This document shows, piece by piece, positions 2,925 through 47,930 of a stretch of DNA of 64,000 bases (position 1 is the stretch's first letter; each line of letters opens with the position of its first letter). Under the pieces are notes generated by a model. The model made no database searches. It worked only from the letters and a program-made list of their open reading frames with translations, and had not been told where the DNA came from. This DNA comes from Chrysomallon squamiferum. Lineage: Eukaryota; Animalia; Mollusca. The stretch covers positions 17,670,001 through 17,734,000 of the forward strand of contig CM022677.1 in the NCBI GenBank assembly GCA_012295275.1, read 5' to 3'. Position numbers and translations under genes: made by a program.

Positions 2925-3096
2925 ATCTGAGCGAGGATTCGTCCAAATCGACAGACGCCAGCATCAAAGTTGAGAAGTTGGAGAAAGCCGAACTGGACAC
3001 ACCGAAGCACGAGTCGACTTCGAAACCCGCGAAGACTTCACACTCAGGCTCCTCCTCCACCCCTAGCAACCCCACCCCGGGCGGGAAGAGACACAG
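2925..3096 (+). CDS. TCF12: E-protein internal exon (N-LSEDSSKSTDASIKVEKLEK...PTPGGKRH)
   Basis: GC-rich island with gttacag| acceptor and ag|gtgggt donor; phase 1 to phase 2; contains an IKVE psi-K-x-E SUMO-type motif like the IKxE motif upstream of E-protein bHLHs. Confidence 0.88.
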
Positions 3097-3383
3097 GTGG
3101 GTGCAGGCTGTTTTCATACCAGAACAGTTCCAGACTCAGTCATTACAGTTACATACAATAATACACCCATGTTTAATAATCTTTTGTATTGAATGCATTT
3201 TAAATTTTTATTTCTTTTTTTTTTTTTATTTATATGTATAATAAAGAATATAATAGTAATATAAATATAAATATTTAGCAATTTTGATATTAAATGTATA
3301 AAAAAAAAAAAAAACAGTATTTTAAATGTATTTTAAATTTTGTACGTTAAAGAAAGAAATGTGTATATAATTATTTTTGGTTA

Positions 3384-3434
<51 letters not shown>

Positions 3435-3779
3435 GATTAAATCAGATTTAAATCACACTGAATTACTAAAGAATACTAATACATTATTACCCTCCAAAAA
3501 AATAAAGTAAATTTTAAAATAAGTCTTTACCAGATTAATTAATAAAATATTTTCAGTCAGTTGAAATACTGATCTTTATGACATTTAGCCATTAACTTAC
3601 TTAATCAAATGTTTAAAATGAATCAGAACAGAGTAAACACATTTTAATTATTTTTATCCGTTACTTAACAAAAATGCTTTTAATAATGAATAAACAGATC
3701 CTTTCTTTTATTATTTCTTTTTTTTAATGATTATAAGTGATAAATTATTATATTTAATAAAATGTTTTGGATCAATCAA

Positions 3780-3943: not shown

Positions 3944-3997
3944 GTTGTTCTCTAGAGAGGATAGGTCAGATTCCACTTTACCTGTCAGCATGGACAG
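3944..3997 (+). CDS. TCF12: Candidate 54-nt symmetric cassette exon (R-LFSREDRSDSTLPVSMD)
   Basis: tgtttag| acceptor and cag|gtaact donor; phase 2-2, no stop, higher GC than its flanks. Confidence 0.55.
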
Positions 3998-4506
3998 GTA
4001 ACTATCTTTGTACATTTCACACCTGTTCATCACCTTTGTTCAAAAGTGATGGGCCATACATTTATTTACTGTTATTGTTGTTACGAATATTTTAAAAACT
4101 GAAATTAGTGTTACTGATTTTTAGTTGTTGTTATTATTATTATTCAGCATGATAATCATCATTATTATTATTATTATTATTATTATTAAAATGAATTTAT
4201 ATCTTAATGTATGATATCTGTATATTTTATATTTTTATAATTATGCAAAGCTATGGGCACCCTTTATCAGTTAGCTGTAAATAAAAATGTTTGTTGACCT
4301 TCCCATATACAGCGTAATGTATCTCCATCACTGACTGTTACAGAACATTGTCTGGAAAACAAAGGATTTAACTAATGTAAATTTTTTTTAAAAACTGAGC
4401 TGGATCAGAAATCCAATAATAGAATAGAAATCCAATAATCTAGATTACAGAAACCCATATACATAGACGTCATAAAAGCATAAACTTTATTAATCAGCTG
4501 TAAATG

Positions 4507-4538
<32 letters not shown>

Positions 4539-4938
4539 CAAATGAACAATTAGACTGTGGATTAGACAGAAGTCACGGAAATAAATGAATACATTTTAAT
4601 TTTTTAAATTTTTTTCAGAACTCTTCCACTAGAAATTAATTACAGAATTTATGTTTTCAGGAATACCGAAGAAATCGAGCAGAAACCAATTATTATCATC
4701 TATTTTATGAAATCAAGAGTTACTGTCGCAAATTATTTATATAAATCTGCTTTTCAGCAATCTCAAGAATGTAGAAAAAATCAGCTTCAACAATATTTAG
4801 TCTTATTTCAGGAGAGTTGAGATCCGAAAATTATCTACCACAAATTTATGTTTCAGCAGCATTCAAGACGTTGGCATAGGCAACTGTGACAAAATTTAGT
4901 TAGAATCAGAAATTATTTTTATCAATTTATGTTTTCAG

Positions 4939-5028
4939 CAGTAGTGAACCTGATGACCCAAATGAGTCTCCGGAAACGAAGCACGAAAGAGAAAAATTAC
5001 GACGGCAGGCCAACAATGCCAGAGAAAG
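4939..5028 (+). CDS. TCF12: E-protein exon encoding the acidic pre-basic segment and basic region (SSEPDDPNESPETKHEREKLRRQANNARER)
   Basis: ttttcag| acceptor (followed by in-frame CAG and TAG) and ag|gtaggt donor; 90 nt, phase 2-2; RRxANNARER is the E-protein basic region. Confidence 0.95.
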
Positions 5029-6560
5029 GTAGGTTCTTTATTGTTATGAAAGGATGGTTCTCTAGTCTGTGTTCGTTAATTTTGAGTTTTATTCAAGAAC
5101 GTTAATTAATTGTAGAAGATTAACAGAAAAAGGTTTTAAATTTTATTCATATACTTAGTTTGTTGATAAACTGACAAATTATATTAATATAAATTTTAGT
5201 AGGAGGTTTGATGCATTCCATAGATGATTCTTTAACTGTGATACAGGTTTATTCATGAATAAGTTGTAGATTATTCATGAAAATTGGGATTATCAGTGTT
5301 GATGAGATTTGGTATTTTTTTTATTTCATGAATAATCACTGTATTTAGTGAAATATTCCTGAACTGTGTATTCTTATTCATGAATATAGATTTTCAGAAT
5401 TTTCATGAATAATATTTCAGTATATTTGCATTTTTTTTATTTTTTTTTTTAAATATTTTTATTTGTGGTTGATGGTATTAATGGAGAATTTTTAAAGATT
5501 GTTTCAGGAATAATTTAAAAAAAATAATGAATGTCCTTTCTGGTCAAACCATGAATGTAAAATTATTTATACAAAGGTGGGTGCCAGAAAAAGTAAATGT
5601 TAATTTAAATTTATTCGTATCATCTTACTTAAATAATGATTGATGAACACTAAAATATTACATTATAGAAGAATATTATAAAAAGTGTTATTATTATTTT
5701 TTTTAATTATATGGGTTAAAACGTAATGTTAGATTCAGATGATTAAATAAAAAATATACAAATGTGAATAGGATGAAGAAATATGAGGGCTTTTTACATC
5801 TGTTTTATTTGTCTTTAAAATGTTTTCATTTTGTAAATTTAAAAAAAAAAGAATAAAATATGTCATCTATTTGGATGTTAGAGACATTTTGTGTTTAAAT
5901 TTGTTTTAACTTTTCACATTTTGTTACTTTAAAAATACGAGAAATTCCATTTGGATGTTATAAATTATTTTGACAATTGGACATTCCAATATTAAAAAAA
6001 AAAATAGTTGTCATTGAGAGAAACTGTTTTAATTAAACCCCCTTTTGGAAAATTGAAGCTTCTTGTAATTAAAAATGTGGAAAATTATAAGTGATAAAAA
6101 AGAAAAACAAAAATAAAATAATAATCAAATAATTATTTTTTAAATGTTGCCAGGAGAAATGATTTAAAATGTTTTGTCATAGAAAAGTATTTTGATGTGT
6201 TACATTATATAAAATGACCATAAATCAAATTAAAATTTAAAAACAACAAACAATGTCATCAAGAGAAATGATTTTAAACATTTTATTATTATTAAAATTT
6301 TTATTATTATTAGTGACAAAAATAACAAAAATTAAAAAAATAAAATAATCAAATAAAAATATTTTTAAATGTGAGAAAATATTTAAAAAAAAATAAAATG
6401 ATCAAATATAAATATTTTTTTTTTAAATTTTAAAAATGGTAGAAAAAAAAAAAAATTAAAAAAAAAAAAAAAATAATAATTTATCCACCCCACTTCGTGG
6501 GAATGTTACAGACAATCTCTTTTTTTTTTTTTTTCCTTTCTTTGTCTTGCGACAATTCAG

Positions 6561-6706
6561 AATCAGGGTGCGAGATATTAATCAGGGTTTCCGAGAGCTT
6601 GGTCAGATGGTCATGTTGCACTGCGGATCAAGCCAACCACTAACCAAGCTGATGATAATCCAACAGGCCGTCAATCTAATCACCTCGCTCGAACAGCAGG
6701 TCAGAG
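6561..6706 (+). CDS. TCF12: HLH exon A (alternative): [48 protein letters not shown]
   Basis: Long poly-T tract plus ttcag| acceptor and g|gtcagt donor; 146 nt, phase 2 to phase 1. Confidence 0.9.
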
Positions 6707-6761
6707 GTCAGTTTCAGTTATCTCCCTTCCCATACGTTTTTTTTCTTCTTCGTTTCTGCAG

Positions 6762-6907
6762 AGTCCGTGTTCGGGACATTAACGAAGCGTTTAAGGAACT
6801 AGGTCAGATGGTTACTATTCATTGCGGGTCAAGTCAACCTTTAACAAAACTCATGGTACTTCAGCAGGCAGTAAATGTCATCACTTCTCTTGAACAACAG
6901 GTTCGAG
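6762..6907 (+). CDS. TCF12: HLH exon B (alternative, canonical-like): [48 protein letters not shown]
   Basis: ttcgtttctgcag| acceptor and g|gtcagt donor; 146 nt, phase 2 to phase 1; INEAFKELG matches the E-protein consensus. Confidence 0.95.
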
Positions 6908-7620
6908 GTCAGTCTTTTCGAGTTGTTTAAAACAAATATTCAGTCGCAAAAATGATAAAATATCACGTTTTTTTTTAATTTTTTAAATATCTGACGTAAT
7001 TTGGCAAAAATTATATATTAAATTAATTAACGTAATTGTAACGTTTTTTGGTTTTTTTGACTAAATTAGTTTGTTTAATTATTTATTTATTTTATTTTAT
7101 TTTTTTTTAAATTGGTGTAATTTTTAAATTTAAATTATTTTTTTTAACAAATTTAATAATTTTTATAATTATTATTTTATTATTATTATTATTAATTTTT
7201 ATTGATTATATATTTTATTTTATTTTTTTTAATTGATTTCATTTTTGCTTTTTAAAAGTCAGCTTCTAAAAGTTATTATTATTGTTTTTTGTAAAATTAA
7301 TTTTCATATTAAAAAAAAGAAAACTTTACTGAATATTCAGGGTTTCCATAGTTCTTAGAAGGCAACAATTTTCAATGTTTTAAAAGACAAAGCAATTTAA
7401 ATTCTAAAAAATATTTATTTATTTATTTATTTAAAAATAATAAATGAAAAAGAAAAGAAAAGAAGAAAAAATAAAACATGGAAATCCTGAGTATCCAATA
7501 TATTTTTGAAAAAAAAAAAAATTGAATTTCACTTTGAATTTTTGCAGAAAATTAAAATATTTTGTTTTTCATAACTCGATTATGGCAGCCCCAAACTGAT
7601 TTCGGGAGGGTTGAATTAAC

Positions 7621-8535: not shown

Positions 8536-8649
8536 AACGTAATCTGAACCCGAAGGCTGCGTGTTTGAAGAGGAGAGAGGAGGAAAAAGGTGAAGATATG
8601 CCGGGTCGTATCCCTGGCGACGACATTACCCAGCAGGCTGCCTTGGCAG
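8536..8649 (+). CDS. TCF12: E-protein C-domain exon (ERNLNPKAACLKRREEEKGEDMPGRIPGDDITQQAALA)
   Basis: ttttctag| acceptor and cag|gtaagg donor; ERNLNPKAACLKRREEEK is the conserved post-bHLH motif of E-proteins. Confidence 0.95.
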
Positions 8650-11412: not shown

Positions 11413-12017
11413 ATAAAAATGCACTTTCCTTGAGAAATGTCCTGCCTTCTGAACAATATGCTGTTGCTATGGGAGATCCAGCAGCAGCAGCACCAAACAG
11501 TGTATATTTTCAAACTCCTGCTGCCTTTGCCTCCATTTCTTCTCAAGGTTATGCTAGAGACACCTACAGTGCAGAAAGATATATTAGGGGAGCCTACCCT
11601 ACTAGTGTTAACAGCAGGGGGGATAATTCTGATCAGCATGTCATGGAGGTCAAATCTGAATATTTTGTAAAGGGAAATAATTCTGTGGATCTGAACGAAC
11701 AGCAGCAACACGAGACTAATAATGACGTTTATGCAAGTGAAGAAAACTCTGTTGCAAGGGAAGATAACTCTGTTGCAAAGGAGGATAATTCTGTAGAGCT
11801 GCCCAGCAGCATTCAGCCAGCATCGTATGTTGCTGCTGCTGTAGCTGCAAGTGCCAGTGTCGGCCAGCAAGTTTTGTGCGACGGTGTTAAGGAAACGATT
11901 CACGTCACTTCTGCTACTGTCTTGGATCCAAGTCCTGCGTCTGAGGCTGTAAAAGAAACAGTTGGTGATCAGGTGATTCAAGCCAGTGTTTCCCCTGGCA
12001 ACGAAGGCAGAAAATGA
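11413..12017 (+). CDS. TCF12: Terminal coding exon, ~200-aa Ala/Ser/Val-rich C-terminal extension (DKNALSLRNVLPSEQY...SPGNEGRK*)
   Basis: cttttcag| acceptor is phase 1, compatible with donor 8649; 605-nt stop-free, GC-elevated frame in ~75% AT DNA; stop TGA at 12015-12017. No recognisable domain. Confidence 0.75.
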
Positions 12018-30210: not shown

Positions 30211-30637
30211 GTAAGTGACTGTGTGTGTTTGAGAGAGTAAGAGAGAGAGCTCTAAACACAAGTCTAGATGGATTAGAGATGTTTAAAAACATCTGGATGC
30301 CATCATTTCTTTGTAGTCATAACATCATCAGTACAGAACAGACCTATTTGTTCTAACATTTCATCTAGTTTGACCAGTAACCCTGGATAGTTGATCTGTA
30401 AAAACTGCTGCCAGCTTGTATCATTCATTCAGAAATATTTCTGCAAAAGATGTATAATGTATTTATTATGTGTTATTTTTTTTAAGTTTAATATTTTATT
30501 TATTTTCTACATTCTCAAGACACTGTTGCAACTTCTATCATTCATTCAGAAATATTTCTGCAAAAGATGTATAACTTATTTATTATGTGTTATTTTTTTT
30601 AGATTAATATTTTAATTTATTTTATACATTCTTAAGA

Positions 30638-30672
<35 letters not shown>

Positions 30673-30778
30673 TTTTGTTTTTATTTACCATTATTTGTCT
30701 GTCTGCCCAACTGGTATTTTCTATGTCATTATTTCTCTTTAAATAATGTATATTATTTATTTTTCTGTTGTTTTTCAG

Positions 30779-31041
30779 GGATGACTTTCTGTACATGTGC
30801 AGACAACTCAACATGGAGGAGTCCGCACATGAAATCATGTTGCATCTTGGGATGGACATCACACAACAGATCTCCTTCACCGACTTCCTGCGCTGTCGGG
30901 CTCGCGTCATGCAGGAGGCGGAGCAGGCCGCGCTCCTTCCTGCCGCCGAGGACACTGGGATAGATTCTGATACCAGCGGGTTTCTTATCACCAAGGCAAC
31001 CAACATGACATCATGGCCAACAATGAGTAGTGACAGTTTAG
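30779..31041 (+). CDS. MCC: MCC exon 2: DDFLYMCRQLNMEESAHEIMLHLGMDITQQISFTDFLRCR...SWPTMSSDSL
   Basis: tttttcag| acceptor and g|gtaaaa donor; phase 2 to phase 1; CRQLNMEES, ISFxDFxRCR and SWPT...SLG match MCC. Confidence 0.93.
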
Positions 31042-31401
31042 GTAAAAAAAAATTTTTTGTTTTTTGTTTTTTGTTTTTGTTTTTTGTTTTTTTTACTTCT
31101 CACTGAAGTTGGTTATAATTGTTTGGGTATTTTTGGGTAAAATACATGCTAATGATAATTTCTACTTTTCATTCTTGTAAGTTTGTTAATCTCTATTGTT
31201 AATCTATATATGAGATTTGGAATTTTTTAAATATTGAGATATTTTACTTTGAAGTAGAAATCATGCGGTAATCGTTTTATGATCAGATTGTAAAAACTAA
31301 TCAAGAGATGACTACTTTACAACTTACAATTAAATCTATTATTTCCTTCTTGAATTTACAAAATAGAAAAAGACAGATAGAATCATGTACAAGCACTTTT
31401 T

Positions 31402-47290: not shown

Positions 47291-47930
47291 GTAGTAAAAT
47301 TGTAAACTGGAGCTTTAATTGAAGATAGTAAGATCAGCACCAAGTAGGGAAGTAATACCTCCTACTGCCTCTAGTAGTGATAGTAGTAAAATTGTAAACT
47401 GGAGCTATAACTGAAGACAGTAAGATCAGCACCAAGTAGGGAAGTAATACCTCCTACTGCCTCTAGTAGTGATAGTAGTAAAATTGTAAACTGGAGCTAT
47501 AACTGAAGACAGTAAGATCAGCACCAAGTAGGGAAGTAATACCTCCTACTGCCTCTAGTAGTGATAGTAGTAAAATTGTAAACTGGAGCTATAACTGAAG
47601 ACAGTAAGATCAGCACCAAGTAGGGAAGTAATACCTCCTACTACCTCTAGTAGTGATAGTAGTAAAATTGTAAACTGGAGCTATAACTGAAGACAGTAAG
47701 ATCTGCATCAAGTAGGGAAGTAATACCTCCTACTGCCTCTAGTAGTGATAGTAGTAAAATTGTAAACTGGAGCTAAAACTGAAGACAGTAAGATCTGCTT
47801 CAAGTAGGGAAGTAATACCTCCTACTGCCTTTAGTAGTGATAGTAGTAAAATTGTAAACTGGAGCTAAAACTGAAGACAGTAAGATCAGCATCAAGTAGG
47901 GAAGTAATACCTCCTACTGCCTCTAGTAGT
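47291..47930. repeat. Minisatellite, 92-bp unit x7
   Basis: GTAGTAAAATTGTAAACTGGAGCTATAACTGAAGACAGTAAGATCAGCACCAAGTAGGGAAGTAATACCTCCTACTGCCTCTAGTAGTGATA repeated with exact 92-bp period. Confidence 0.97.

Follow-up and report, generated by a model that had tools for sequence, protein, structure and literature searches.

Tandem, probably mutually exclusive helix-loop-helix exons in an E-protein gene of Chrysomallon squamiferum

Most tissue-specific bHLH factors have an E-protein as their common partner, and a single generic E-protein is usually assumed for invertebrates. The E12 and E47 proteins are already known to be products of one gene, TCF3 (E2A) (PMC6795145 and PMC6317319, in the available parts of both papers). 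The tandem bHLH exons 18a and 18b of this E-protein gene are used singly and have the same 3′ boundary, before ERNLNPK, as the two exons described here (available part of PMC6795145; fish and mammal gene models). However in TCF3 the acidic segment and basic region are part of the alternative exons, whereas the gene under study swaps the HLH only. Exclusivity in TCF3 involves hnRNP H1/F, PTBP1 and intronic silencers; in the gene under study a 55-nt intron suggests a steric block. Steric mutually exclusive exons of the alpha-tropomyosin type, of which there are 57 human clusters in the available part of PMC5740500, have a donor-to-branch-point distance of less than 50 nt. The present gene is similar in this distance, but here the entire intron is only 55 nt and its retention is in frame. 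Vertebrate COE/EBF is another transcription factor with a tandemly duplicated HLH-coding exon; in the available part of PMC2394523, helix 2 alone is repeated and both copies are constitutively included, unlike the exons of this report.

Two isoforms of Gigantopelta aegis (Peltospiridae), XP_041355899.1 (X1) and XP_041355900.1 (X2), are present in RefSeq as automated models and are the same as the present gene over these exons, however they carry no description, retained-intron form or comparison. Thus the kind of mechanism is known from TCF3 and both isoforms exist as unremarked RefSeq models, but the exon-array system described below is apparently undescribed. No description of alternative HLH exons in invertebrate E-proteins was found in the literature searched, which consisted of open papers. 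The term “splic” has no match in the main texts of PMC5381572 and PMC1828162, and the available passages of PMC8657788 and PMC6433000 contain nothing relevant.

The window is the whole 64-kb stretch of C. squamiferum DNA that was analyzed. It contains, on the + strand, a gene whose bHLH sequence is nearest to TCF3/4/12 and daughterless and is followed by an ERNLNPKAACL C-domain, which identifies it as a class I bHLH or E-protein gene. Its best PDB matches are TCF4 and E47. As in other members of the family (TCF4, TCF12, daughterless, HLH-2) the basic region, HLH and C-domain are conserved. The gene differs from them in having the spiralian QP[LM]T loop instead of KPQT, an intron in the codon for R578 (TCF4 numbering) and, in exon A, Gly in place of A587 and Ile in place of L611.

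The gene map starts at position 2234 and the 5′ part of the gene is outside of the mapped portion. Three upstream coding exons with AG/GT boundaries are at positions 2234–2294 (in a single open frame with the next exons), 2925–3096 and 3944–3997, and their translated sequences are identical to G. aegis X1 at 17 of 21, 45 of 57 and 13 of 18 amino acids, respectively (72%–81%). The shared exon U (4939–5028) encodes the acidic segment and basic region and is identical to G. aegis at 30 of 30 amino acids. A tandem CAGCAG acceptor is found at positions 4936–4941; G. aegis X3 has one Ser fewer here, which fits use of the second AG. At its 3′ end, exon U is followed by a phase-2 intron within the Arg codon equivalent to TCF4 R578. 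The two alternative HLH exons, A (6561–6706) and B (6762–6907), are separated by the 55-nt intron (6707–6761). Shared exon D (8536–8649) encodes the C-domain (ERNLNPKAACL...), with 36 of 38 amino acids identical to G. aegis, and the probable last coding exon is at positions 11413–12017, where tblastn shows about 42% identity to the G. aegis X1 C-terminus and where the acceptor and the end of the open reading frame are read from the sequence. By tblastn and protein comparison, neither a third HLH exon nor a second basic-region exon was detected in the 64-kb window. Elsewhere in the window, positions 47345–47846 of the minus strand contain a repeat with a short unit (about 92 nt) that gave several identical weak tblastn matches and is unrelated to the E-protein. 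At positions 30635–31103 both strands have open stretches that overlap and are coding-like in composition, and another gene may have an exon there.

Exons A and B are each 146 nt in length, are bounded by AG and GTCAGT, have the same phase, and each has its own polypyrimidine/AG acceptor and GTCAGT donor. A coordinate check thus reproduced the exon structure given in the preliminary description. Being adjacent homologues that match in length and phase and have separate splice sites, they form a tandem duplication of the kind that produces mutually exclusive exons, and both exceed the Pfam HLH (PF00010) cut-off. The amino acid sequences differ at 9 of 48 positions (I/V, Q/E, G/A, R/K, M/T, L/I, I/V, I/L, L/V) and, of the 39 codons for residues in common, 26 carry synonymous differences, numbers that were the same when recomputed. 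Nucleotide identity is 70% (102 of 146) and 17 of 48 third codon positions are identical. The dN value is 0.117 and dS is saturated (undefined by NG86, with no usable dN/dS from LWL85 and YN00). The U-A-D and U-B-D reading frames are open, and the U-A-B-D and U-D frames run into stops; as first described, a splice from A to B leads to a stop at codon 14, and R-T-stop results if both exons are skipped. No tandem repeat covers exons A and B, and RNA folding around them (without a shuffle control) displays no clear docking-site-like structure.

Exon A is used by five of the six G. aegis RefSeq isoforms (X1, X3–X6) and exon B by one (X2). The A and B peptides are each identical to their G. aegis counterparts at 48 of 48 residues, and X1 and X2 differ only at the same nine positions. 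Exon A has not decayed in this related species, since it is identical there while the distal exons are only 72%–81% conserved. The proposal that both exons are under selection is supported by the dN value, the saturated dS and the unchanged peptides.

RNA evidence consists of assembled contigs from four runs of one study, compared over positions 6545–6975; these bear on neither expression levels nor the phase of the whole transcript, and joins to U and D were read as loose contig ends beyond the A/B region. Exon A is joined to U (5028>6561) and to D (6706>8536) in all four runs. Exon B is joined to U (5028>6762) in one run, X4, and to D (6907>8536) in two, X1 and X4. Thus both exons are used and each is joined to the same flanking exons, A at both junctions in all runs and B at both junctions in one. 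In run X4, A and B are on different contigs, each of 202 nt and with identical flanks. An A-to-B joint is absent from the contigs of the four runs, which show presence and not absence. Mutually exclusive use of A and B, though not as a strict rule, is supported by the RNA junctions and by the G. aegis isoforms X1 and X2.

It could be argued that one of the copies is a pseudo-exon or the product of an assembly duplication. The chance of this is practically nil and no support for it was found; it is ruled out by the 70% nucleotide identity with saturated silent sites, by spliced RNA for both A and B and by the presence of both peptides in G. aegis. Exons A and B are genuine alternative exons for the HLH of an E-protein.

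The preliminary description concluded that exactly one exon must be used. The lack of an A-to-B joint and the G. aegis isoforms with one exon each agree with this, however the rule is not strict, because the 55-nt intron is in frame and stop-free and one run has a contig that retains it. In run X1, a contig extends from position 6677 through the 55-nt intron and exon B and is then spliced to D, and the sole contig at the A acceptor in this run is spliced to U. The retained form would have the arrangement basic-HLH(A)-19 residues-HLH(B). The X1 contig may represent a mature retained-intron RNA or a precursor.

The intron is probably too short to splice. Besides the final AG, its adenosines are at positions 4, 10, 14, 26 and 28, thus any possible branch point is at most 28 nt from the A donor, which is within the 50-nt steric limit, a threshold derived from human exons and applied here to a mollusc. 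Since all candidate branch adenosines are so close to the donor, exclusivity is inferred to be steric: splicing from A to B would be prevented by the position of the branch site, and the frame shift with decay of the transcript would serve as a back-up. A transcript in which U is already joined to A may still use the B donor, leaving the intron in and giving a two-HLH by-product, and this would fit the X1 contig. The 55-nt spacing is not shared by other loci, where the shortest inter-exon introns are 106–127 nt and branch-like motifs are at least 68 nt from the donor.

A different proposal would make the retained-intron form the key product. U-A-intron-B-D would encode one basic region and two HLH units, and the protein, by folding back on itself or sequestering partners, would work as an Id-like off switch. 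The open frame through the intron favors this, as does run X1, with its A-intron-B-D contig end and its only A-acceptor contig joined to U. However, an in-frame open spacer of such composition arises with a chance of about 0.27 on shuffling, and none of the six G. aegis isoforms has such a form. The X1 contig may also be a partly spliced precursor, as run X3 has an unspliced contig extending past B. In other loci 14 of 30 inter-exon spacers are in frame but only one of the 30 is both in frame and open, and conserved read-through of these introns was rejected on this basis. The proposal is thus quite improbable, and the two-HLH form is likely a by-product, possibly a functional one. In an AlphaFold model the two-HLH unit forms two HLH folds, but the confidence is low (pLDDT 62, pTM 0.41). 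At least one two-HLH open reading frame in the database, P0232, seems to have TGA translated as Trp, judging from comparison with locus L017.

What the swap changes can be examined with TCF4 numbering (construct 569–628, with V581 and K607, from the available part of PMC6895265), where exon position 1 is residue 579. The basic region had been placed in a shared exon. This is correct for most of it, which is in exon U, but the last basic positions are inside A and B and are identical in both. The equivalents of R580, V581, N585 and K607, the DNA-contacting residues as named in PMC6895265 (available part), are inside the alternative exons, are conserved in this gene and are the same in A and B. 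Judging from sequence, the A and B proteins likely bind the same E-box. The earlier statement that E-box recognition is kept constant applies to the present gene only, as the basic-region exon varies in other molluscs and in locus L010 (see below).

Exon B has a typical molluscan sequence, 94% identical to the single HLH exons of other gastropods. Exon A is derived at Q8, G9, M18 and I33. Among 159 other distinct 48-residue HLH exons, G9 is found in two, I33 in none, Q8 in one and M18 in two. Helix 1 of exon A reads NQGF, which is achaete-scute-like; in the PMC5381572 supplement NQGF occurs in Biomphalaria ASCa2 and in Capitella, other ASCa proteins have NNGF or NLGF, and some ASCa paralogues have Thr or Ser at the compared site. 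Position 9 corresponds to TCF4 A587 and position 33 to L611, where exon A has Gly and Ile. In the available part of PMC8648840, A587 packs on L611 of the partner, a contact that comes from a structural model, and the A587P change eliminates DNA binding by the homodimer, although some binding with ASCL1 persists. A chance of about 0.03 applies to the paired change at A587/L611 if the pair is named in advance; here it was noticed afterwards.

In the proposed mechanism B would be the ancestral-type exon and A a retuned one, in which replacement of the Ala/Leu cross-dimer pair by Gly/Ile may shift the balance between homodimer and heterodimer and the preference for partners. It is plausible on the modeled contact that A and B differ in dimer or partner preference. 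The reading thus obtained is that in this class I bHLH gene an intron divides the basic region from the HLH, the HLH exon was duplicated, and the copies are spliced in singly to give proteins that likely bind the same E-box but with different partners. It is supported by the spliced RNA for both exons, the lack of an A-to-B joint, the unchanged G. aegis peptides and the saturated dS, and we consider it probable.

A and B may instead both be used and be functionally equivalent, the odd residues of A representing tolerated and compensated drift. Most of the A/B differences are conservative, and the interface is not enriched for them: four of the nine (positions 9, 19, 33 and 39) are on the 16 interface positions listed in the available part of PMC8283981, with three expected by chance. 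Among the isoforms fetched, several other molluscs show one HLH version only, and the adjoining shared exons U and D are as conserved between the two species as are A and B. Against equivalence, exon A keeps residues that are found in none to two of 159 other exons, and these are unchanged in two species whose distal exons are 72%–81% identical. Exon arrays have also been kept in several phyla, and their exon types are conserved between species. Equivalence is unlikely on balance, though less so than the retained-intron proposal, and a difference in partners remains the preferred reading.

An origin independent of E12/E47 was proposed at the outset and both the exon boundary and the position in trees, which differ from those of E12/E47, argue for it. 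Exons A and B lack the acidic/inhibitory segment and most of the basic region, unlike the E12 and E47 exons, and are not their orthologues by this measure. Among two-copy models the basic region is repeated in 23 of 23 from vertebrates (one is an identical TCF4 repeat and probably an artefact) and in none of three from invertebrates. All trees are based on 48 columns under LG+G4 with no mixture model, have unsettled bootstraps and are unrooted on a tested outgroup, thus the order of events is an inference. In a tree of 74 rows the 10 vertebrate exons are on one side of a branch with 96/92 support. Two types of HLH exon can be distinguished, Q with a QP[LM]T-like loop and K with a KPQT-like loop, and in a subset of 38 rows the Q-type exons are on one side at 99. 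With crustaceans and Pongo added (49 rows), support is 99/98 for Q, 84/88 for vertebrates, 100/99 for the crustacean second exons and 92/88 for the first exons. A and B fall in the Q clade nearest to gastropod exons, A having the longer branch, and do not group with E12 and E47, respectively. AU tests of A with Ruditapes2, Magallana1 and Pinctada1 give p values of 0.026, 0.19 and 0.37, and the latter two pairings are not rejected. A and B as sisters (p = 0.645, with a likelihood above that of the free search) is compatible only.

The opposing possibility is that A and B are orthologous to the vertebrate E47 and E12 exons and date from a bilaterian ancestor. The 3′ boundary is the same, the GTCAGT donor is also found in the fish locus L021, and three of the nine A/B positions (1, 11 and 19) also differ between E12 and E47. 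Pairings with E47 taken singly are not rejected by AU tests (A 0.053, B 0.11). However either scheme requires an E12 pairing and these have values of 0.033 for A and 0.028 for B, thus both schemes are weakly rejected on the 48 columns. In addition, A is identical at 29 of 48 and B at 32 of 48 residues to E12 and to E47 alike (P0314, used as E12, matches the human entry in the PMC5381572 supplement), and the vertebrate exons include the basic region and group with TCF4. Common origin with E12/E47 is accordingly very improbable, far more so than functional equivalence, and A and B appear to have arisen independently of them.

Tandem HLH exons are found in other animals. In metagenome data, 17 of the best 80 of 214 loci have several HLH exons (six with two, ten with three and one with five); by exon sequence these represent about four lineages, one of which accounts for 13 loci. 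All 46 complete copies are bounded by AG..GT and have the same phase. The other 63 loci have one HLH exon each; 26 of them span the region from the basic exon to the C-domain exon and have the same intron (22 K and 4 Q), and many of the remaining ones are short. Where Q and K are together in a locus, Q is always 5′. Such arrays reach three to five copies, unlike TCF3. The largest array seen (L008, positions 80–2478) has five tandem HLH exons, four Q and one K, followed by one C-domain exon. In L006 (5519–5927), and also in L002 and L003, the C-domain exon is preceded by decoy acceptors, as a 68-nt tandem repeat there contains several copies of its acceptor and first codons.

The named tandem cases are mostly automated models that stitch both exons together, with boundaries read from protein and not from DNA or RNA. 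Among such models, the bivalves Ostrea edulis (3), Magallana gigas (3), Ruditapes philippinarum (2) and Pinctada imbricata (2) have several versions of the Q type only, and the annelid Lamellibrachia satsuma and the flatworms Macrostomum lignano, Taenia solium, Echinococcus granulosus, Schistocephalus solidus and Cichlidogyrus casuarinus have Q followed by K. The brachiopod Lingula anatina similarly has two HLH-only tandem pieces of 147 nt, “E12/E47_1 and _2”, which are 220 nt apart on one scaffold and strand with Q 5′ of K (PMC5381572 supplement), but these were counted as two genes by Bao, Xu and Shimeld 2017 (PMC5381572, Table 1). A second HLH version was not found in Haliotis, Patella, Physella, Liolophura, scallops and Mytilus among the isoforms fetched (at most 15 per cluster). 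On this weak negative evidence, the A/B pair probably arose by re-duplication at the level of the lineage. It belongs, as a recent member, to an exon-array system that is old and widespread.

The Q and K types differ at the equivalents of E47 R571, K581 and Q583, residues of a loop hydrogen-bond network and of the E47-ID1 salt bridge in the available part of PMC8283981. This older split may affect sensitivity to Id/emc.

The crustaceans Homarus, Amphibalanus, Hyalella, Cyprideis and Darwinula have another HLH-only pair, whose second copy is of the moth “daughterless” type. The two HLH-only copies are seen in the crustacean daughterless genes P0343, P0344, P0420, P0421 and P0422, and the moth protein P0424 has the second type alone. 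It may be that insect daughterless is what survives of such a pair. In Hypsibius exemplaris (P0427), two whole bHLH units with basic regions are about 200 residues apart and the first is very divergent; this may reflect a tandem gene pair stitched into one model or a boundary like that of E12/E47.

The basic region can also vary. Locus L010 has two equal-length AG..GT basic-region exons (NNARER and NNNRER; positions 3342–3643), 194 nt apart, upstream of three HLH exons (4155–5786), which allows as many as six bHLH combinations. An additional or alternative basic region immediately before the HLH (NNDRER, NNNRER and others) occurs in isoforms of Pecten, Ylistrum, Mizuhopecten, Ruditapes, Mercenaria, Liolophura, Haliotis and Physella. 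Alternative basic regions would alter the DNA-binding half with the HLH kept.

A possible history is that an HLH-only exon was duplicated early in Spiralia into a 5′ QP[LM]T type and a 3′ KPQT type, that the sampled molluscs kept the Q type only and some of them re-duplicated it, and that crustaceans and vertebrate TCF3 would have had their own separate duplications. A broader reading, which we hold only tentatively as a whole, is that protostomes, most of which have one E-protein gene, diversify it by a modular cassette. This would consist of the basic/HLH intron and two to five HLH exons, in some cases with alternative basic exons (2 × 3 in L010), would yield partner-selective E-proteins, and would have separate origins in Spiralia, crustaceans and vertebrates, the vertebrate exons having a different boundary. 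As part of the same tentative reading, exon A would have converged on the achaete-scute helix 1 with the matching Leu-to-Ile change, giving a proneural-selective or class II-like E-protein by splicing alone.

If each gene supplies two to five HLH surfaces by splicing, then the choice of partner would itself be regulated and E12/E47 would be one of at least three separate inventions. The arrays vary the HLH with the remaining protein constant, thus the rules of dimer specificity could be tested with them, including at A587, a Pitt-Hopkins position. Gene counts such as that of Lingula, and stitched two-HLH gene models, would be corrected by reading these loci as arrays. This is relevant to the design of RNAi and in situ probes in planarians, annelids, oysters and parasitic flatworms.
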